From Chloroflexota bacterium (GTDB lineage Bacteria; Chloroflexota; UBA5177), in NCBI GenBank assembly GCA_036391775.1, contig DASVZE010000195.1, forward strand, positions 1-24,931: DNA of 24,931 nucleotides. Reading direction: 5' to 3'. Positions 6,690 through 18,946 of this stretch are shown piece by piece. How positions within the stretch are numbered: the stretch's first letter is position 1; every line of letters begins with the position of its first letter. The notes below the pieces were generated by a model, which ran no database searches, was not told the origin of the DNA, and worked only from the letters and a program-made list of their open reading frames with translations. Position numbers and translations under genes: made by a program.

Positions 6690-7334
6690 TTAGAGGTCCT
6701 TTTGCCGGCTCCTGATCTCGGCCAGTGTTGGCGATAGATCGATGCGCCCGGACTGAATGCGCTCGACGAGGTCTGCGGGAATCTCCGTCATATGGGTTGC
6801 TAGACCATTTGATTCAACGATCAAACTCGTGATGGCCAGAGATTCGTCGTCCACCACAAGACGTTCTAGGTCTCCGACATCTCCATCCTGAGCGGCCACG
6901 ACCGTCTTATCGCCGATAACCGCTGATCCCGCAGGAACGTTCCGCCAGACCTCGACAATTGGGGTGAAGGCAATGGTCGTAATGCCCTGCGCAGCGCCTA
7001 CCGGAGGAACGTTCGGCACGTCGACGAATTCTTGCTTGTAATCAGCAGACTCAATGTCGTCTGCCACATCGGCTGGAGGCGGAGCGACATTCTGGCTGTA
7101 TGCGTATGGCTCGAGCGAATGGAGCTGCGTTTCATCCATCCGCAACGAGACCGCGTCATCGTCTGCGGCCGCGACAAATTCTGCCGGCACGATGACGGCA
7201 CGCCCGTCGAAACCTGACTCCTGAACCACGAGTGAGAGAACTTTCTTAGTCGCGCTATCGCACACAATGTGGCGTAGCTCACCGAGCGACGGACCGTCTA
7301 CCTGCCTCACATCGCTCAACAGATGTAGCTCCAT
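6690..7334 (-). CDS. Tandem PRC-barrel domain protein
   Basis: Two repeats of the PRC pattern (DG..LGELRHIVCD...V..LVV and DGDVGDLERLVVD...ITSLIV...IPADLVERI) joined by an acidic, Pro-rich linker. RBS AGAGGTG. Confidence 0.8.
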   Translation of the reverse strand: MELHLLSDVRQVDGPSLGELRHIVCDSATKKVLSLVVQESGFDGRAVIVPAEFVAAADDDAVSLRMDETQLHSLEPYAYSQNVAPPPADVADDIESADYKQEFVDVPNVPPVGAAQGITTIAFTPIVEVWRNVPAGSAVIGDKTVVAAQDGDVGDLERLVVDDESLAITSLIVESNGLATHMTEIPADLVERIQSGRIDLSPTLAEIRSRQKDL

Positions 7335-7589
7335 ATCTCACACCTCTTTTCAAACGCTTCTCCTCATAGTAGGTCGCGCGGGCAGTATCAAAAGCTCAGA
7401 GCACAAAAGAGGCTTTACTTCCTGAAGAGACGCCACGCATCTTTGCGGGCACGCGATGCTTGCCGGAACTCTGCCTGGAAACTGGCAAAACCGGAGCCGA
7501 ACAACCGGATCGAACGTGCAAAGTCTTGCCCGACGTGCGGTTGTACTCGCCGAGAGAGCAGGCTTACCGGCACTCTTTGGTACGTGCAT

Positions 7590-7598
7590 TGATATACT
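7590..7598 (+). promoter_or_regulatory. Putative extended -10 promoter (TGnTATACT), probably driving tRNA-Ser
   Basis: TGATATACT at 7590-7598, inside the inverted repeat GCATT-N9-AATGC (7586-7604). Confidence 0.5.
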
Positions 7599-7705
7599 GA
7601 ATGCGGCAATGAGCCGGCTTCTGGCCGGCTTTCTTACCGTTCACGGTCTGGCCAAGAGACGGTCTGTTTCTCGAGAAAGCAGCACGATCCGTCGAAAGGG
7701 AGCGT

Positions 7706-7795
7706 GGAGAGGTCGCCTAGTCCGGCCTAGGGCGCGGCACTGGAAATGCCGTAAGGCGCAAGCCTTCGTGGGTTCGAATCCCACCCTCTCCGCCA
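7706..7795 (+). tRNA. tRNA-Ser(GGA)
   Basis: Acceptor stem GGAGAGG/CCTCTCC, anticodon stem CGGCA/TGCCG with loop CTGGAAA, long variable arm AAGGC-GCAA-GCCTT, T-arm GTGGGTTCGAATCCCAC, discriminator G and an encoded CCA. Confidence 0.98.
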
Positions 7796-7947
7796 CTCCT
7801 CGCCGACGACTTCTTTCCCGTATTCGTCTCGGCGGACCCGTCAGTGGACCTATCGGAACTTCCCCACCGCCCAGGGACAGGCCAAACCTGGTTCGTAGAC
7901 GCCGTCTACAGGCAACCGCAGGGTCGTGCCGTTCAATCGGCGTGTCG

Positions 7948-9014: not shown

Positions 9015-9659
9015 TCACGGCGCCAGGCTGAAAGGAGGATACACATCGGTCACCATTATGAGGGCATACCCGATAACCCGATCTTGCCAGCGGATGACTC
9101 CCTCCACGAAGTCGAACATACCTCTCGGATACACGCCCGTAAACAGAATGGCGAACCAGGCCACGATCACGACCACCACGGCGGCAATTCCCAAAAAGAA
9201 CAGAATAAAGAAGTGAGGGATTGCAAGGAACCATTTGACGAGCGGAAGCCACCGATTGAGGTCGCGGGGGACATCTGGGTAAGGGAAATCGAGCCGCACG
9301 GACTGCTGCTCGTCGGTAGACGGATAATGGTCGTCCATCAATGCCAGGTATACCGTCACTCGGTTGAGAAATCGTAGCAGCTGCAAATTCCAGTCGAACC
9401 ACCAGCGTGGGTACTTCTGACGAAAGACGATCATAAGCAAGGGAGCGAAGATCAACAGGCTCCCTGCCCCAGCTGCCGCCTGTCGAGTCCCATTGCTGGC
9501 CGTCCATGACCACGTCGATCCGGCCACGCTCCCCAGTACCAACAAGATTGGGATGGCCACAAAGATGCGAAAGCCTGTTGTCAACTTATCAAGCGGACGA
9601 TCCGGATATTCCACCGCGAGCTGGACCGGATAGCTCGCAGAACTGACTGACGGATTCAC
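9015..9659 (-). CDS. DUF4389 domain membrane protein
   Basis: Two internal repeats: FRQKYPRWWFDWNLQLLRFLNRVTVY...DHYP and FTGVYPRGMFDFVEGVIRWQDRVIGY...DVYPPF. GTG start with RBS AGGAGAG. Confidence 0.9.
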   Translation of the reverse strand: MNPSVSSASYPVQLAVEYPDRPLDKLTTGFRIFVAIPILLVLGSVAGSTWSWTASNGTRQAAAGAGSLLIFAPLLMIVFRQKYPRWWFDWNLQLLRFLNRVTVYLALMDDHYPSTDEQQSVRLDFPYPDVPRDLNRWLPLVKWFLAIPHFFILFFLGIAAVVVVIVAWFAILFTGVYPRGMFDFVEGVIRWQDRVIGYALIMVTDVYPPFSLAP

Positions 9660-12039: not shown

Positions 12040-13065
12040 TTAACAGTTGCGCGCGTGTGAGACGGCTTCGATCGTTCTATTCCTGCAAGCCATAGCCTTT
12101 AGTTCCCGGCCAGTCCACGAGCCAAGTGGGACGACCCGTGCTCCCGGCGCTGGACTGGGAACCGGAGTGGGCTGTTGTGGCGCTTGAAACGTGGCTTCAC
12201 CGTAGTCGTAGGGCGTTGCAATGTAGTACGTACCAGACTGGAGTCGTTGCAGGATCAGTGGCATGTCGAGAGCCCCGGCCGGCGACGTGGGACCAACCAA
12301 GAATTCACCTTCCGGCTGGTTCGCGCTGTTCTCGTATAGACCCCAGATATATCGCTGCGCCGGATAGTTTCGAAACTGCAATGGCAAGAGCCCACCAAAA
12401 AGAACAGGACTACTCGCCGTCAGTGCAGAGCTGACGGGGTGCTCACGAACCGCAAAGTCGGTCGACAGGTTTTGCGCCGGCGCAAGAATCTTATAGTACC
12501 CGGCCGAGAAAAACGGAAAGCCGAACTGCTGCGGCCAGGCATAAACGGAAAATGACCCGCCGGCGTCGGTCGGCGCCCAAAGCGCCCTCTCGCCACCGGC
12601 TCCGGTCAGCATAAGCGTCAGACCAATCGTTTGGTTGGGCGGGAATCCCACACCGACAAAGTCGAAAGCTGAGGTTGGAGACGGCAGATTGGGCTCCGCG
12701 AGAAGGTGCGGACTACCATCGGATACCCCGAACGTGGCACTGTAGCTCCGGCCATCGGCCAGTCCAATCACCCATCGATATAAACCGATCTGCCAGCCTG
12801 TTTGGGGTGGCTGCAGAGTGTCGGCCACTGAGCCCCTGGAGTCGATTATTACGTGGTTGACCGCTTGCTGGCCGTCTGGAGCAAACAGCGCGGTGGTCGC
12901 CGGTATGTTTGCAGGTAAGCCACGGGCTTGCACTGTGTGTTCGCTAGTAGGTGAGCCGGCCGGCGGGCTCAGTGTGACTGAAGGCTCCTCCCCCGCCTCC
13001 GAGATCGCCGAGCGCGGCGCCAGGACGAAGAGCATGAATGCCGAGCAAAGGATGAGGTAACGCAT
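12040..13065 (-). CDS. Secreted hypothetical protein with about three Ig-like repeats
   Basis: Signal peptide. Repeating units of roughly 90 aa with G(F/L/Y)P...(D/S)..G...G.Y patterns (RGLPAN/DSRGS/GLY; GFPPN/DAGGS/GYY; NYPAQ/SPAGA/GTY). Confidence 0.75.
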   Translation of the reverse strand: MRYLILCSAFMLFVLAPRSAISEAGEEPSVTLSPPAGSPTSEHTVQARGLPANIPATTALFAPDGQQAVNHVIIDSRGSVADTLQPPQTGWQIGLYRWVIGLADGRSYSATFGVSDGSPHLLAEPNLPSPTSAFDFVGVGFPPNQTIGLTLMLTGAGGERALWAPTDAGGSFSVYAWPQQFGFPFFSAGYYKILAPAQNLSTDFAVREHPVSSALTASSPVLFGGLLPLQFRNYPAQRYIWGLYENSANQPEGEFLVGPTSPAGALDMPLILQRLQSGTYYIATPYDYGEATFQAPQQPTPVPSPAPGARVVPLGSWTGRELKAMACRNRTIEAVSHARNC

Positions 13066-13224
13066 GAACCCTTCCCAAATGACATATAGGTCTGCCGGGG
13101 TATGCGAGTCGGAAGGCGTTTGCCCAGGTTGCCCGACACGCCATTGATAAACGTAGCAAAGTGACCCGGTGTAACCGAGTCTTACTGACCAAACGGCTTC
13201 AGCAAGCCCTTTTGGCTGCTACGA

Positions 13225-13233
13225 TGGCATAAT
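13225..13233 (+). promoter_or_regulatory. Putative extended -10 promoter of the ligase operon
   Basis: TGGCATAAT (TGnCATAAT) at 13225-13233, 15 nt before ATG 13249. Confidence 0.5.
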
Positions 13234-13248
13234 TGGTGAACGGAAGGG

Positions 13249-14652
13249 ATGCCATCCACCATGGAGCGCGGCAGAACCGCAGCAAGTACCTTGGTTGGCG
13301 GTGCAAGTCGCGAAGCGGAGCTTGCTGCCTCATATCACCGCGTACTACAGGACGATACAGATCTGGCGGAGCGCTGTTTTGCGCAGCTCATTGAGGCACA
13401 CGAGGAAGGCAGACTGCTGTTCCAGGGTCGCCTTCTCTGCAGCGTCTTGCGCCCCAGGTTCTTGCCTGCCGGCACGGTGAAAGAGCTGGAAAGCGTCAGT
13501 AGCACACTCGCGGAGATCCTGGAGCGCTACGGGGAAGAACTCCTCAAGTCGGAGGAAGGACTCGACCTTATCCATGCATCCGAGAACGAACGAGAGATAT
13601 GGTCGATCGATCCCGGCTACCAGGGCTTCACCCTGACGTCTCGCCTGGACTCATTCTTGTTCGGGGATCAACTTCGATTTGTCGAATATAACGCGGAGAG
13701 TCCCGCAGGCATCGGATACTGTGATCGGCTCACCGATGTCTTCGAGACAATGCCGTCAATGCAGCAATGGTCGCAAGATTACGGTGTCGATCGCTTTCAT
13801 GCCCGGCGCCATCTACTGGAAGCAATTCTCTGGGCCTACCACGAGTGGGGCGGAAGCGATACCCCGCGTATTGCCATTATCGACTGGGACCACGTCGCCA
13901 CTCACCGCGATTTCGAGCTGTGCGCCGAGTATTTCCGGGGTCGGGGTTTTCCCACCGTACTGACCGATCCCCGCCACCTTGAATACCGCAACGGACACCT
14001 ATGGTGTGGTAATGAAGAGGTGCGCCTGGTGTATCGCAGAGTTCTCCTTCACGAGCTTCTGGACAAGCGAGCGGAAGCATCCGGTCTGCTTGACGCTTAT
14101 CGGGATGGAGCGGTCTGCATGGTGAACTCCCCGCGCTCGAAAATATTGCATAAGAAAACCGTCTTCGCGTTACTCAGCGAGCGCTTGCTGGATGTCCCTC
14201 TCTCTGAAAGTGAAGAAAAGCTCGTCGACAACGTGGTCCCGTGGACACGCGTCGTCCGGTCTGGAACGACGACTTACGGGGACGCTCGCGTCGACTGTCT
14301 TCGCTTCATTCTCGGCGCGCGCGATCGCATGGTTCTCAAGCCGGTTGATGATTACGGGGGACGGGGGGTGGTACTGGGTTGGGAAACCGATCCGGCAGAG
14401 TGGGAGCAAGCTGTGGAAGAGGCAGCCGAAAAGCACTTTGTGGTCCAGGAGCGGGTTCCTATTCCCGAGGCCGAGTTTCCCACATGGCAAGAAAACGATG
14501 TCGACCTGGTCTCTATGCTGGTAGATACAGATCCGTTGCTGTTCCGGAGGCGCGCGGGCAGTATCTTGACACGCATCTCGAGCAGCGCGTTGCTCAACGT
14601 CTCCGCGGGGAGCGGAAGCACCACGCCAACCTTCATGGTCCAGGAGGCATAG
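13249..14652 (+). CDS. Circularly permuted ATP-grasp amidoligase (glutathionylspermidine synthase-like)
   Basis: SRLDSF...FVEYNAESPAG corresponds to the R-x-D and E-x-N metal/ATP motifs of Gsp synthase-type ligases. Also LHKKTVFALLS, VLKPVDDYGGRGVVLG and FVVQERV. Confidence 0.85.
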   Translation: MPSTMERGRTAASTLVGGASREAELAASYHRVLQDDTDLAERCFAQLIEAHEEGRLLFQGRLLCSVLRPRFLPAGTVKELESVSSTLAEILERYGEELLKSEEGLDLIHASENEREIWSIDPGYQGFTLTSRLDSFLFGDQLRFVEYNAESPAGIGYCDRLTDVFETMPSMQQWSQDYGVDRFHARRHLLEAILWAYHEWGGSDTPRIAIIDWDHVATHRDFELCAEYFRGRGFPTVLTDPRHLEYRNGHLWCGNEEVRLVYRRVLLHELLDKRAEASGLLDAYRDGAVCMVNSPRSKILHKKTVFALLSERLLDVPLSESEEKLVDNVVPWTRVVRSGTTTYGDARVDCLRFILGARDRMVLKPVDDYGGRGVVLGWETDPAEWEQAVEEAAEKHFVVQERVPIPEAEFPTWQENDVDLVSMLVDTDPLLFRRRAGSILTRISSSALLNVSAGSGSTTPTFMVQEA

Positions 14653-14653
14653 A

Positions 14654-15781
14654 GTGCAAACAGAATTCACTATCGGCATTGAAGAAGAATTTCAGATTAT
14701 CGATCCCGAGACCCGTAATCTCCGTTCGTCTATCACAGAGATGCTGGCAAGCGGGGAGCCCATCATGGGAGAGCAGATCAAAAAAGAAATGTTCCAGGCA
14801 ATGGTGGAAGTGGGTACTCACGTCTGCCGGGATGTCGTTGAGGCTCGACGGCAGGTCATCTCGTTGAGACGGCAAATCTCCGGTCTGGCTGAAGGAATAG
14901 GTGCCACAATCGTCGCGGCAGGAGCTCACCCATTTGCCGATTGGCAAGAAATGGAGATCACCGAAGACACCCGGTATACCAGCTTGACCAAAGACCTGCA
15001 GGAGATCGCGCGCTCGATCGCGGTCTATGGCATGCACGTCCATGTCGGCATAGAAGATCGCGATCACGCTGTGGAGATCATGAATGAGGCACGATACTTC
15101 CTGCCTCACATCCTCGCTCTCTCCACTAACTCCCCCTTCTGGCGCGGCCGGGACACCGGGCTGAAGTCGTATCGATCCGTCGTGTGGGGCCGCATGCCTC
15201 GCTCCGGTATTCCGGATACGTTTCTGTCCTGGGACGACTACACGCACTTCGTCAATACGCTCTTACGCACCAATTCGATCGACGAGCCAAAAAAGATCTG
15301 GTGGGATATTCGGCCGCACCCGCGTTTCAACACGCTCGAATTTCGGGTTTGCGACATGCAAACTCGGGTGGACGACGCCATATGTATTGCCGCTCTCTTC
15401 CAGGCTGTCGTGGCCAAGCTGTACAAGCTCCGCCGGCTAAACCTCGGTTTTCGGATTTACCAGCGCGCATTGATCTCAGAAAATCGCTGGCGCGCCATTC
15501 GGTACGGCCTCGACGGCGATCTTATCGACTTCGGCAAAGTCAAAGAAGTTCCGATGCGCCAGCTAGCAGTTGAGCTTCTTGAGTTTGTCGACGATGTGAT
15601 CGACGACCTTGGCAGCCGTCAGGCGTTGCAGCACTTATACGTCATTCTGGAGGAAGGCACCGGCGCCGACCGGCAGCTTGCCGAATATGCTCAGCATCAG
15701 GATCTTGTAAAAGTGGTCGATTTCTTATCGGCCGAGACCCTCAGAGACGTGAAGATGTCCGAAACACAAGCCGCACTCTAA
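14654..15781 (+). CDS. Carboxylate-amine ligase, GCS2/YbdK family (glutamate--cysteine ligase 2-like)
   Basis: FTIGIEEEFQIID, EMFQAMVEVGT, GAHPF, GMHVHVG, NSPFWRGRDTG, WWDIRPHP, TLEFRVCD and ENRWRAIRYG. GTG start with AGGAGG inside the end of the upstream gene. Confidence 0.96.
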   Translation: MQTEFTIGIEEEFQIIDPETRNLRSSITEMLASGEPIMGEQIKKEMFQAMVEVGTHVCRDVVEARRQVISLRRQISGLAEGIGATIVAAGAHPFADWQEMEITEDTRYTSLTKDLQEIARSIAVYGMHVHVGIEDRDHAVEIMNEARYFLPHILALSTNSPFWRGRDTGLKSYRSVVWGRMPRSGIPDTFLSWDDYTHFVNTLLRTNSIDEPKKIWWDIRPHPRFNTLEFRVCDMQTRVDDAICIAALFQAVVAKLYKLRRLNLGFRIYQRALISENRWRAIRYGLDGDLIDFGKVKEVPMRQLAVELLEFVDDVIDDLGSRQALQHLYVILEEGTGADRQLAEYAQHQDLVKVVDFLSAETLRDVKMSETQAAL

Positions 15782-15793
15782 AGGAGAGTACCA

Positions 15794-16744
15794 GTGAAGA
15801 TCGGCCTACTGGTTGGACGCGAGAACACGTTTCCGCAGGCATTCATTGACCGAGTGAACAGCAAGGGCGTACGGGGTATCACCGCAGAGATGATCCGTCT
15901 CGGCGGGACCAGGCTGAATGATGAGATTCCGTACCGGTTGATTGTCGACCGGATATCACACGAGATTCCGTATTACCGGCTCTACCTGAAGCAGGCCGTG
16001 GCGCAGGGAGTGATTGTGATCAATAATCCCTTCTGGTGGAGCGCGGATGACAAGTATTTTGGCTGCCTTCTTGCCGAGCGAGTGGGAGTTGCGGTACCTA
16101 AAACCGTGCTCCTACCCAATCTCGAGTACGACGCCGACATCATCGACGAATCTCTGAGAAACCTGACTGAGATCCCATGGGAAGACCATATCGCCTACAC
16201 GGGGCTTCCGGCAGTCCTGAAGCCGGCAATTGGTGGCGGGAACAAGAACATCCACATGGTGGATACACTCGACGAGCTAAAGGCCGCCTATCAGACAAGC
16301 GGTTCACTGCAGATGATTTTGCAGGAGAAAATCGAGTACGAAGACTATGTCCGCTGCTGGTGTCTGGGAAGAAAGTACGTGTTCTTCTCGCGATACGGCC
16401 ACTTCTTGCCGCGCGAGGAGCGTTATATCCAGCAGTCTCAGGGCATCTCCGCGGCACTGCAGGAGCGCGTCGTGGGCGACGTTCTCAAGCTGTGCGATGG
16501 GCTCGGATACGACATGAATACGGTGGAGATGGCAATTCGCGACGGTATTCCATATGCCATCGACTTTCTCAATCCGGCGTGCGACATGGACCGCAACTCC
16601 ATTCGCGAGGAACGCTTCGAATGGGTCGTGGAGCATATGGCCACGATGTGCATCGAGTACGCACTAGGCGAGCGGGAACCCGCCAGTACCGCGTGGTGGG
16701 ACGCGCTGGTGCAGCTTCCTGAGCGCGCGGTTGTTGCTCCATGA
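15794..16744 (+). CDS. RimK/glutathione synthetase-like ATP-grasp ligase of unknown substrate
   Basis: NNPFWWSADDK, VAVPKTVLLP, AVLKPAIGGG, MILQEKIE and YDMNTVEMAIRDGIPYAIDFLNP. GTG start with RBS AAGGAG. Confidence 0.85.
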   Translation: MKIGLLVGRENTFPQAFIDRVNSKGVRGITAEMIRLGGTRLNDEIPYRLIVDRISHEIPYYRLYLKQAVAQGVIVINNPFWWSADDKYFGCLLAERVGVAVPKTVLLPNLEYDADIIDESLRNLTEIPWEDHIAYTGLPAVLKPAIGGGNKNIHMVDTLDELKAAYQTSGSLQMILQEKIEYEDYVRCWCLGRKYVFFSRYGHFLPREERYIQQSQGISAALQERVVGDVLKLCDGLGYDMNTVEMAIRDGIPYAIDFLNPACDMDRNSIREERFEWVVEHMATMCIEYALGEREPASTAWWDALVQLPERAVVAP

Positions 16745-16755
16745 TTCGGCACTGA

Positions 16756-17658
16756 ATGCGCCACGCGATCGAGTTAGGCGCTGTCACAAAGATTTATAGG
16801 GGCGATGTTCGCGCCCTTGACGAGGTGACACTGACAGTCGAGGCAGGTGAGCACTGCTGCCTTCTAGGCCCGAACGGGGCGGGGAAGACCACCGTCATTC
16901 GCTTGCTTCAGGGTGCACTCGCTCCATCCGCGGGCACGATAACTATTCTGGGTGCAGCGGCTAGCGGCCGGGATCTGCTCGCGGCCAAACTGCAGGTAGG
17001 GGTGGTGCCTCAGAGTCCCGGCCTCTATCCTGACCTGACCGTTGAGGAGTATCTGTCGTTCGTTGCCTCGCTGTACGGTCGGGGACAACCTGGACGCACG
17101 GCCGAGGATTACGGGCTGGGAGAATACTTGAAGCGGCCGTGCGCCACGCTCTCGGGAGGCTATCAGCGCAGGCTTCTGGTCGCAGCGGCAGTCATGACCG
17201 AGCCGGAACTTCTTCTTTTCGATGAGCCGACAGTTGGCCTGGATCCGCTTGCGGCATCGCAGACTCGTTCTCTCCTGCGCGCGGCAATGCGTAATCGGAC
17301 GGTTCTCATGAGCACGCACAACTTGTTGGAGGCGGAAGAACTTTGCGATACCGTCATCATCATGCAGCGCGGGTCGGTTCTGGTCCATGAACGGATAGAG
17401 GATCTGCGGCGGCAGTCCGCTCCCAGGGTGTGCTTGCGTGCGCGGCAGGATTCGCAGTGTCTGGGTAAGAGCCTGGATACGCTTCAGCTTCCTTGGGCGG
17501 AGCGCGACGGGTCCGTTTGGCTACAGCTTGACAAACCACAGAGTCAAGCCCCCGCCGTTCTTCGCCGCCTGCTGTCCGACGGTATCGACGTGTATGAATG
17601 TCGTATCGTTCAACCCAGCCTGGAAGACGTCTTTGTGGATCTCGTGACCCAATCATGA
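16756..17658 (+). CDS. ABC-2 type exporter, ATP-binding subunit
   Basis: Walker A GPNGAGKT, signature LSGGYQRR, Walker B LLLFDEP, H-loop STHNL, and the C-terminal PSLEDVFV typical of DrrA/CcmA-like ATPases. Confidence 0.95.
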   Translation: MRHAIELGAVTKIYRGDVRALDEVTLTVEAGEHCCLLGPNGAGKTTVIRLLQGALAPSAGTITILGAAASGRDLLAAKLQVGVVPQSPGLYPDLTVEEYLSFVASLYGRGQPGRTAEDYGLGEYLKRPCATLSGGYQRRLLVAAAVMTEPELLLFDEPTVGLDPLAASQTRSLLRAAMRNRTVLMSTHNLLEAEELCDTVIIMQRGSVLVHERIEDLRRQSAPRVCLRARQDSQCLGKSLDTLQLPWAERDGSVWLQLDKPQSQAPAVLRRLLSDGIDVYECRIVQPSLEDVFVDLVTQS

Positions 17659-18386
17659 GGCGGCGTTTCGCGGCTCTCTTGCGCAAAGAGATGAAGCAAC
17701 TATTGCGGTCACGGAAGACTGTCATCGCAGCCGCGATGGTCCCCGCATTGATGTTGTTGTTCGTCGCGTTCGGAAACATCCTCACGCTCAAAGTGGGATT
17801 CGCCTCCAAGGAGATCTATCTCCTTTCATCCACGCGGCGAGTATCGGGAGCATTCCTGCTCCAGCATTACACCTTGCCGGTGCTCGTGACGATCAGCGCC
17901 CTTGTTGTGCCGTCCATAGTCATGGGTGATTTGCTCTTCGGTGAGCGGGAGCGACGTACGCTCGATCTCCTGGTCGCGTTACCTGTCTCGGTCTACGATG
18001 TCGTTCTCGCCAAGCTGACGGCTGTTCTTGGGTTTGCGATCTGCGTGATAGGCCCTCTCTTCGTCCTGAACACCCTGATGGTGTCGGCTGCAGGATACGG
18101 GGCTGTGCCTCAGACCGCTGCTCTGGCCGGACTCCTGGTGGCGTCCGTCTGCTACTCGACTTCCAGCGCGCTATTGGTCGCCGTGGTTGCTGGAGAGGCG
18201 CGTGCCGCGAACATCGTCAGCGGACTGGTACTCGGGCCGGTGGTGCCGGTCGAGGGTCTGGTTCTAGCGGCGGTCAAGTCGTATGCGGCAATCGTGGCGT
18301 CCGCGTCCGTCTTGCTCGCCGTGGCTTGCGTCCTCCTCATCTGGTCGCTCCGCCTGCTGAGCTTCGAAAGACTGGCCGGCGGTTAA
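17655..18386 (+). CDS. ABC-2 type exporter, permease subunit
   Basis: MRRRFAALLRKEMKQLLRS, GERERRTLDLLVALPVS...VVLAKL and about six TM segments. ATG 17655 overlaps the ATPase stop (ATGA). Confidence 0.92.
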   Translation: MRRRFAALLRKEMKQLLRSRKTVIAAAMVPALMLLFVAFGNILTLKVGFASKEIYLLSSTRRVSGAFLLQHYTLPVLVTISALVVPSIVMGDLLFGERERRTLDLLVALPVSVYDVVLAKLTAVLGFAICVIGPLFVLNTLMVSAAGYGAVPQTAALAGLLVASVCYSTSSALLVAVVAGEARAANIVSGLVLGPVVPVEGLVLAAVKSYAAIVASASVLLAVACVLLIWSLRLLSFERLAGG

Positions 18387-18445: not shown

Positions 18446-18946
18446 ATGCAAGTACACGAAATAATGACGCCACAGGACTTCAGCCTGCACTCCGGCGCCA
18501 CACTCCTTGAGGCGCTCGAGGCAGTGCGAATCCATGGATGCTCGGTCCTTCCTGTCACAGCAGATGATCGCCTCATAGGCGCCGTCACACTGGCTTCTAT
18601 TCAGTCAACTGCCGCGGAGGCCGGCCTTGCCGCGGGCTCGCTTCCGGTTGAACAGGCTATGGAGCGGAATCCGACATATTGCTACGCCGACGAGGACATC
18701 GTCGAGGCAGAAGACGATGTCCAACAAGACCGGCCATTCCTGATCGTGGTCGACCGAGACAAAAGGGTCGTTGGGACCGTCGCAACACAGGATCTGTGCA
18801 CCGAGATCGGCAGAATGCGGGGTCCCGTGACCGGCTCTCTCGGCAGCGCTTACCCGGACGTCGCATTCGACGAAGACCGTGTGGAATATCAGAGCGAGGA
18901 GTCTTTTCCTGCTAGCGACCCGCCGCCTGGCTCCAGCGCGCAGTAA
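18446..18946 (+). CDS. CBS domain pair protein with an acidic ESFPASDPP C-terminal motif
   Basis: MQVHEIMT...LPVTADDRLIGAVT and VEQAMERNP...IVVDRDKRVVGTVA are two CBS motifs. RBS AGGAGG before ATG 18446. Confidence 0.85.
   Translation: MQVHEIMTPQDFSLHSGATLLEALEAVRIHGCSVLPVTADDRLIGAVTLASIQSTAAEAGLAAGSLPVEQAMERNPTYCYADEDIVEAEDDVQQDRPFLIVVDRDKRVVGTVATQDLCTEIGRMRGPVTGSLGSAYPDVAFDEDRVEYQSEESFPASDPPPGSSAQ

Follow-up and report, generated by a model that had tools for sequence, protein, structure and literature searches.

The window analyzed here is a 24,931-nucleotide (nt) stretch of a metagenome-assembled Chloroflexota genome (GTDB lineage Bacteria; Chloroflexota; UBA5177; GenBank assembly GCA_036391775.1, contig DASVZE010000195.1, positions 1 to 24,931 of the forward strand), and the locus in question is a putative operon at positions 13249 to 18386 that encodes three dissimilar amide-bond-forming ligases followed by an ATP-binding cassette (ABC) transporter pair. 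All five genes lie on the forward strand. They were predicted to encode a circularly permuted (CP) ATP-grasp ligase of the CP_ATPgrasp_2 type with a glutathione-synthetase-like fold (gene 1; 467 amino acids [aa]; positions 13249 to 14652; assigned from profiles and an AlphaFold model), a GCS2/YbdK-family carboxylate-amine ligase (gene 2; 375 aa; 14654 to 15781; profiles and a PDB match), a RimK/LysX/Ddl-like ATP-grasp ligase of a distinct family that has no Pfam model (gene 3; 316 aa; 15794 to 16744; AlphaFold and Foldseek), a DrrA-like ABC transporter ATPase (gene 4; 300 aa; 16756 to 17658; Pfam), and an ABC-2 type permease (gene 5; 243 aa; 17655 to 18386; Pfam). The intergenic gaps of 1, 12, 11, and −4 nt reported in a first-pass annotation of this DNA were confirmed, with gene 4 starting 11 nt past the end of the RimK-like gene and the permease gene overlapping the ATPase gene by 4 nt. 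The sequencing runs found to contain the locus were all of soil metagenome DNA, with no RNA run among them, and the genome that holds the window (G000) was 58% complete. Contigs of independent soil metagenomes bridged the junction between the RimK-like gene and the ABC genes, so this adjacency is not an assembly artifact.

Gene 1 matched CP_ATPgrasp_2 (PF14403) over residues 142 to 420 at 44.7 bits (cutoff, 32) and CP_ATPgrasp_1 (PF04174) at 36.9 bits, and its earlier assignment to the circularly permuted ATP-grasp enzymes was upheld by both families. Nothing else in Pfam matched at an E value of ≤0.01, and the search did not place gene 1 in GSP_synth (PF03738) or in the eukaryotic glutathione synthetase families (PF03917 and PF03199). 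The structures of genes 3 and 1 were modeled with alignments from related loci (A1 and A2, respectively). The gene 1 model (AlphaFold predicted local distance difference test [pLDDT] score, 91.2) was most similar, over its full length, to the human, plant, and yeast glutathione synthetases and homoglutathione synthetase in the PDB (template modeling [TM] score of approximately 0.70), followed by the CP_ATPgrasp_1 structure 3n6x, Escherichia coli GspS (TM, 0.59), Cp1B, and YgiC/YjfC. In a profile search of the PDB, weak matches were obtained for 3n6x, Cp1B, and YgiC alone, and GspS was reached only at an E value of 0.81. The initial description of gene 1 as glutathionylspermidine synthetase-like is therefore apt for the fold and not for the family. 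Motifs that were invariant among the aligned relatives included SRLDSF, VEYNAESPAG, and LKPxDxYGGxG.

A second CP ATP-grasp gene was found on contig C628 of the same genome (L002:1525-2880, forward strand), encoding a protein 42% identical to that of gene 1. It follows zwf, the glucose-6-phosphate dehydrogenase gene, and has no GCS2 or RimK-like neighbor, and it was rejected as a second cassette. Related genomes of the family gave one CP ATP-grasp match each; the C628 gene may be a lineage-specific extra copy or may lie on a misbinned contig.

The GCS2/YbdK assignment of gene 2 was borne out by full-length matches to GCS2 (PF04107; 217 bits), to the carboxylate-amine ligase model NF010039 (521.6 bits; cutoff, 371), and to TIGR02050 (307.7 bits; cutoff, 176), as well as to the YbdK structure 1r8g (E = 2.7e-48). 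As a bona fide glutamate-cysteine ligase, gene 2 scored below the cutoff of NF010043 (370.5 bits; cutoff, 409), and its scores against other GshA equivalog models were far below theirs.

Gene 3 matched no Pfam family, including the Pfam RimK family, and scored far below the cutoffs of TIGR00768 (rimK_fam; 24.5 bits; cutoff, 143.4) and TIGR02144 (LysX; 14.6 bits; cutoff, 275.6). Its AlphaFold model (pLDDT, 89.5) was nevertheless that of a complete three-domain ATP-grasp enzyme, and Foldseek placed it closest to LysX/ArgX, RimK, and the D-Ala-D-Ala ligases (Ddl) (TM, 0.65 to 0.75; probability, 1.00). The Lys (K143), the Gly-rich loop (GGG147-149), and the E...D-x-N Mg ligands (E245, D257, and N260), characteristic of the ATP-grasp superfamily, were invariant. 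The label “RimK-like” can consequently be kept for the fold, in which gene 3 resembles LysX, RimK, and Ddl, but not for the family. When a gene 3 profile was compared with 1.84 billion cluster representatives, 625 representatives of clusters at 50% identity were recovered at an E value of ≤1e-30.

A search of 11 other genomes from the family of the window's genome found homologues of gene 1 in 10, and 3 less closely related genomes of the phylum had them too; the flanks of these homologues were searched with all proteins of the window. The three ligase genes were adjacent in all of these loci, in the order CP ATP-grasp, GCS2, RimK-like within the family and RimK-like, CP ATP-grasp, GCS2 in the distant loci of the phylum. 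The CP ATP-grasp and GCS2 genes adjoined each other in every related locus in which both were found, with the exception of L099, and in the window the GCS2 gene starts 1 nt after the CP ATP-grasp gene; the locus thus shows the adjacent GCS2-like COOH-NH2 ligase of a CP_ATPgrasp_2-type neighborhood.

The wider distribution of the ligases was assessed by scanning species-representative genomes with the RimK-like protein, which gave at least 595 confirmed relatives. The best 80 loci, which were analyzed further, came from Acidobacteriota, Bacteroidota, Ignavibacteria, Gemmatimonadota, Chloroflexota, Verrucomicrobiota, Armatimonadota, and Calditrichota. A cultured species, Cryomorpha ignava, also has the cassette (locus L094). 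In these loci the RimK-like gene was usually preceded by a gene for an Esterase-family alpha/beta-hydrolase, with the GCS2 gene coming after. Beyond the GCS2 gene lay a gene for an M29-like peptidase or a class I GATase-type hydrolase and then either the same CP ATP-grasp gene or a gene for a protein of approximately 395 aa without a Pfam family, which aligned with the core of the CP ATP-grasp protein (hhalign probability, 89%; E = 2e-6). Three dissimilar ligases and accompanying hydrolases therefore make up one widespread cassette, within which the ligases are a real, co-inherited functional unit. The alignments of the RimK-like ligases (A1) and of the approximately 395-aa proteins (A3) were both well conserved and spanned phyla, and neither corresponds to a Pfam model.

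Some lineages had further genes beside the cassette. A phosphoglucomutase gene directly followed it in six Bryobacterales-type Acidobacteriota loci (L028, L030, L037, L049, L053, and L063), and genes for a Ser/Thr kinase with TPR repeats and a PIG-L/NPCBM-associated protein followed it in Acidobacteriaceae (L032, L033, L041, L042, L045, and L048, among others). A link to carbohydrate metabolism, considered on the basis of these phosphoglucomutase, kinase, and PIG-L neighbors, was set aside as lineage specific, with no such neighbors seen in the window.

The hydrolases were more variable than the ligases. Neither an alpha/beta-hydrolase nor an amidohydrolase/peptidase of the kind described for CP_ATPgrasp_2 neighborhoods was found with the operon in the window. 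Such hydrolases were present in the orthologous loci L014, L019, L020, L023, L024, and L025 and in most of the best 80 distant loci; outside the window, an esterase-type hydrolase was almost always part of the cassette, and M29 or GATase1 hydrolases were frequent. The esterase gene lay between the GCS2 and RimK-like genes in G004, G005, G009, and G011; in distant loci it was located upstream of the cassette. In five family genomes whose operon lacks the esterase gene, G000 included, a search with the L019 esterase as the query found no esterase anywhere in the genome. The ligase triad is thus the heritable core of the cassette, and hydrolases and transporter are dispensable accessories.

The two transporter genes were identified as previously annotated, with all three Pfam matches above their cutoffs: gene 4 matched ABC_tran (PF00005; 103 bits) and DrrA1-3_C (PF13732), and gene 5 matched ABC2_membrane (PF01061; 33.3 bits). 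The score of gene 4 against TIGR01188 (drrA) was 184.7 bits, which is below the cutoff of that model. Linkage of the pair to the ligases was surveyed in the 11 triad-bearing family genomes, counting the window. An intact pair directly followed the RimK-like gene in five of these (the window, G003, G005, G009, and G011), with permease orthologues 61 to 63% identical to gene 5 in the latter four. In G004, the ABC genes had decayed to a pseudogene (L014, G004:C1, approximately positions 7270 to 7803), of which the first ~79 residues of the ATPase and the last ~100 residues of the permease, the latter with two in-frame TAA stops, could be recognized; the ligase and esterase genes next to these remnants were intact. 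In G001, an orthologous pair (59 to 61% identity) was located on another contig with no ligase genes nearby. The pair was missing from the locus in the remaining four genomes (G006, G007, G008, and G010), where CBS or other genes followed the RimK-like gene. Whole-genome searches found no ABC orthologue in G007 or G008 and a weak match of 30% identity in G006. No ABC gene adjoined any of the 80 distant cassettes.

The first-pass annotation had regarded the ABC pair as a dedicated exporter and had proposed that its synteny with the ligases be surveyed across genomes. Since the ABC genes are not conserved beside the ligases, the exporter proposal fails as a general claim, and the link between transporter and ligases is facultative and at most specific to the family. 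In a maximum likelihood tree of the concatenated ligases, in which backbone support was weak (31 to 43%), the ABC-bearing loci were scattered. From this scatter, the distribution appears best explained by an old linkage of the ABC pair to the cassette within the family, after which the pair was repeatedly lost, moved elsewhere, or degraded while the ligases were kept.

Sequences upstream of gene 1 were compared among 11 family loci. In 6 of them (the window, L015, L016, L021, L022, and L023), the orthologous first gene was closely preceded by the motif TG[GT]CATAAT(C/T/G)GG. In the window, this motif corresponds to a candidate extended −10 element, TGGCATAAT, at positions 13225 to 13233 of the forward strand, 15 nt upstream of the first ATG, and TGNCATAAT occurs only once on the forward strand of the operon region. 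The conserved motif is likely an extended −10 element with a very short leader. An extended −10 element before the operon had already been suggested at TGCTACGAT, which is indeed present at positions 13217 to 13225, but the element kept in relatives is TGGCATAAT instead. A scan for consensus promoters reported nothing upstream of gene 1, and no Rfam match indicative of a riboswitch or leader RNA was found at an E value of ≤1 in positions 12900 to 13400. The g5 genomes (L014, L019, and L024) share a different upstream sequence, CGCACACTGAC[GA]TATC. A second copy of TGCTACGAT, for which 0.13 occurrences are expected by chance, lies on the reverse strand at window positions 9371 to 9379, inside a long open reading frame (ORF; 9015 to 9659) whose DUF4389 domain spans residues 141 to 210 only. 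The true start of that gene may lie further downstream, with the second TGCTACGAT copy as its promoter.

No terminator-like site was found in the gap between the ligase and ABC genes. As the only conserved promoter-like element precedes gene 1, the ABC genes are probably cotranscribed with the ligases. A stand-alone CBS-pair protein with two CBS domains is encoded downstream (positions 18446 to 18946, forward strand; ATG start at 18446 with a GGAGG ribosome binding site) and is possibly part of the same transcript. Seven of the 10 related family loci (L014, L015, L016, L018, L021, L022, and L023) had a CBS homologue downstream of the cassette; in L015, L018, and L022 it came immediately after the RimK-like gene. 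The ABC pair separates the RimK-like gene from the CBS gene in the window and four relatives. As a neighbor of the cassette, the CBS gene was not found outside the family. A gene for a VTT/DedA-family membrane protein came next after the CBS gene in several family loci and not in the window, where a metallophosphoesterase/nucleotidyltransferase pair follows.

On the other side of the operon, a divergent gene (positions 12040 to 13065, reverse strand) encodes a secreted-looking protein of 341 aa with an N-terminal hydrophobic, signal-like segment; the protein gave only a weak match to a GxPGS Ig-like domain and belongs to no known family. Its gene adjoins the cassette in most family genomes. 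An HtrA protease gene lies beyond it, and both genes are conserved neighbors of the cassette within the family only. Neither a carrier protein nor any small ORF shared with related loci was encoded in the operon or beside it. A 27-aa, Cys-rich ORF at positions 13064 to 13147 was considered as a precursor or carrier peptide and rejected, since 14 related loci hold nothing equivalent (E > 0.7 for every match). For the other genes of the window (XdhC, gluconolactonase-like, DUF4389, C39-like peptidase, and glycosyl hydrolase), no link to the cassette was seen.

Among known systems, the locus most closely resembles the CP_ATPgrasp_2 neighborhoods. In 2009, in Mol Biosyst, Iyer, Abhiman, Burroughs, and Aravind reportedly predicted such amidoligase neighborhoods to function in the synthesis of small peptides, and the Pfam entry PF14403 presumably describes the same type of neighborhood, with the same predicted role. 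The pairing of a PF14403 CP ATP-grasp gene with a gene for a GCS2-like ligase is common to both, and the orthologous loci add the alpha/beta-hydrolase and the amidohydrolase/peptidase; the window differs in having no hydrolase and in having an ABC-2 pair. The strictly co-conserved RimK/LysX-like third ligase is not known to be part of the PF14403 description. The window is in these terms a trimmed, local version of a CP_ATPgrasp_2-type amidoligase cassette, and what it newly offers is the cassette in its minimal form of three ligases, together with an ABC-2 insertion that is specific to the family and has been lost repeatedly.

The biosynthesis of glutathione, glutathionylspermidine, and trypanothione (GshA or plant-type GCS, eukaryotic GSS, GspS, and YgiC/YjfC) follows the same chemical logic, in which a gamma-glutamyl ligase of the GS/GCS superfamily is followed by a CP ATP-grasp enzyme that extends the carboxylate of the peptide. 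The fold of gene 1 is comparable to those of GSS and GspS (TM, approximately 0.70 and 0.59, respectively), but identity is 12 to 14% and there is no GSS or GspS Pfam match; moreover, the window has a third ligase and no amidase domain. Gene 3 shares the three-domain ATP-grasp fold and the conserved ATP/Mg residues of RimK, LysX, and ArgX but lies far below the cutoffs of those families, and no gene for an S6-type or LysW-type acceptor was found near it. The fungal E-64 ligase Cp1B (PDB 9cjn) is a eukaryotic CP ATP-grasp enzyme that makes a small amide natural product without a nonribosomal peptide synthetase (NRPS), using epoxysuccinate as its acid substrate (PMC12568646). Gene 1 matched Cp1B weakly by profile (E = 9.4e-4) and in fold (TM, 0.59), whereas Cp1B has no GCS2 or RimK-like partners in addition to its different substrate. 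A thiohistidine-dipeptide system was rejected as a match, as the RimK-like ligases in it are paired with sulfoxide synthases (PMC13674229).

On these comparisons, the reading that we favor, with a probability of roughly 0.55, is that the three ligases build up a small peptide, probably a gamma-glutamyl one, in successive steps and that the window holds a trimmed, orphan version of the cassette to which the ABC pair is a facultative accessory. In the first step, the GCS2/YbdK enzyme would activate the gamma-carboxylate of glutamate and join it to an amino acid or amine. The CP ATP-grasp enzyme would then phosphorylate the free carboxylate of the resulting dipeptide and add a second amine or amino acid, and the RimK/LysX-like enzyme would add a further residue, yielding a tri- or tetrapeptide-like metabolite made without a ribosome or an NRPS. 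In most lineages, where the cassette includes an esterase together with an M29-like or GATase1 hydrolase and lacks a transporter, the product would probably be both made and broken down within the cell. In the family of the window, the hydrolases are lost in part or entirely, and an ABC-2 pair lies between the last ligase gene and the CBS-pair gene. The first-pass annotation had likewise envisaged three sequential ligations that build a peptide or conjugate for export; the ligases are co-inherited, in keeping with stepwise nonribosomal assembly, but an exporter dedicated to them is not supported as a general claim.

Several points weigh against the stepwise assembly of a gamma-glutamyl peptide by a core triad. 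The order of the reactions is proposed by likeness to glutathione and glutathionylspermidine chemistry. Gamma-glutamylcysteine is formed only poorly by YbdK itself, for which no true substrate is known. In full-text searches, no experimental work was found on the cassette or on the substrate or product of the three families in this context. With the genome of the window 58% complete, absences from it mean little, and the weak backbone support of the ligase tree makes the number of ABC losses uncertain. A real functional link between the ABC pair and the ligases may also exist, given the short gaps (11 and −4 nt), the lack of a terminator-like site, and the same position of the pair in five family genomes spanning four genera. 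That the pair exports the product is a tentative suggestion from gene arrangement, and a somewhat doubtful one; it may instead be an unrelated efflux unit on the same transcript.

Tight coupling of the genes would also be expected if all five formed one pathway for an exported secondary metabolite, such as a metallophore, a signal, or an antibiotic-like peptide, with the ABC-2 pair as its specific exporter. The uninterrupted gap and the position of the sole conserved −10-like element, upstream of gene 1, favor this explanation, as does the loss of cytosolic hydrolases from the genome of the window. The ABC proteins and the ligases show similar levels of identity among the five family genomes, in line with vertical co-inheritance. 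We nevertheless consider the explanation unlikely. At least 6 of the 11 triad-bearing family genomes retain the ligases without an adjacent ABC pair, the pair decays beside intact ligase genes in G004 and works apart from the ligases in G001, and an adjacent transporter is found in none of the 80 cassettes of other lineages. Nor does the window contain tailoring, regulatory, or uptake genes of the sort typical of metallophore clusters.

The product might instead be ordinary glutathione or a close analogue (gamma-Glu-Cys-X), with the GCS2 enzyme forming gamma-glutamylcysteine, the CP ATP-grasp enzyme adding glycine, and the third ligase and the ABC pair as accessories. In this direction, a search of five family genomes, three of them at least 91% complete, yielded no GshA (PF04262), GshB (PF02955), or BshC (PF10079), and the closest folds to gene 1 are glutathione and homoglutathione synthetases. 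That resemblance is one of fold, however, at approximately 14% identity and with Pfam matches to CP_ATPgrasp_1/2 only. Gamma-glutamyl transpeptidase was present in all five family genomes, but it is found also in bacteria without glutathione, such as the Bacillus subtilis control. Glutathione S-transferase-type domains were nearly absent (marginal matches in two of the five genomes), and although one distant locus has a thioredoxin/AhpC-like gene 0.8 kb downstream of its GCS2 gene, no redox gene recurred beside the cassette in 93 loci. The third ligase, which glutathione synthesis does not need and which is strictly co-conserved across phyla, also tells against glutathione. We regard glutathione as very unlikely.

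The ligases could also act on a protein or carrier peptide, extending or tagging a C terminus or a side chain as RimK does on S6, LysX on LysW, and PafA on the targets of Pup. The third ligase is structurally nearest to LysX/ArgX and RimK, which act on protein C termini, and GCS2 belongs to the same superfamily as PafA and Dop (PMC2588565). All structural relatives of the CP ATP-grasp enzyme, on the other hand, act on small molecules. Because the operon is not accompanied by a LysW-like gene or by any other small ORF or carrier gene that is conserved, and because a domain search of the window proteins found no alpha-E, transglutaminase, Anbu protease, or proteasome genes and no peptidase (a result that holds for the window only), we consider protein tagging very unlikely. 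The same absence of a peptidase had been used in the first-pass annotation to argue for a free small molecule. That argument is weakened by the hydrolases that orthologous cassettes normally carry, although a small molecule is still the most likely product when set against protein tagging.

These results mean that the attractive reading of the ABC pair as a dedicated exporter is not general, and that the three ligases alone, as the core of the cassette, constitute a smaller minimal gene set for product discovery. In a bolder version of the favored reading, which we consider quite unlikely, the product would be a gamma-glutamyl tri- or tetrapeptide, maybe a thiol that replaces glutathione, and its make-and-break cycle would have been rewired to export in this family through the loss of hydrolases and the gain of an ABC-2 pump. 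If that were true, the thiol would stand in for glutathione in lineages without gshA, gshB, and bshC. The breadth of the system is considerable, with 625 cluster representatives of the third-ligase family (E ≤ 1e-30) and at least 595 matching loci in species-representative genomes from major phyla of soil and water. An orphan three-step peptide pathway that is conserved despite its cost in ATP marks a real gap in bacterial metabolism.

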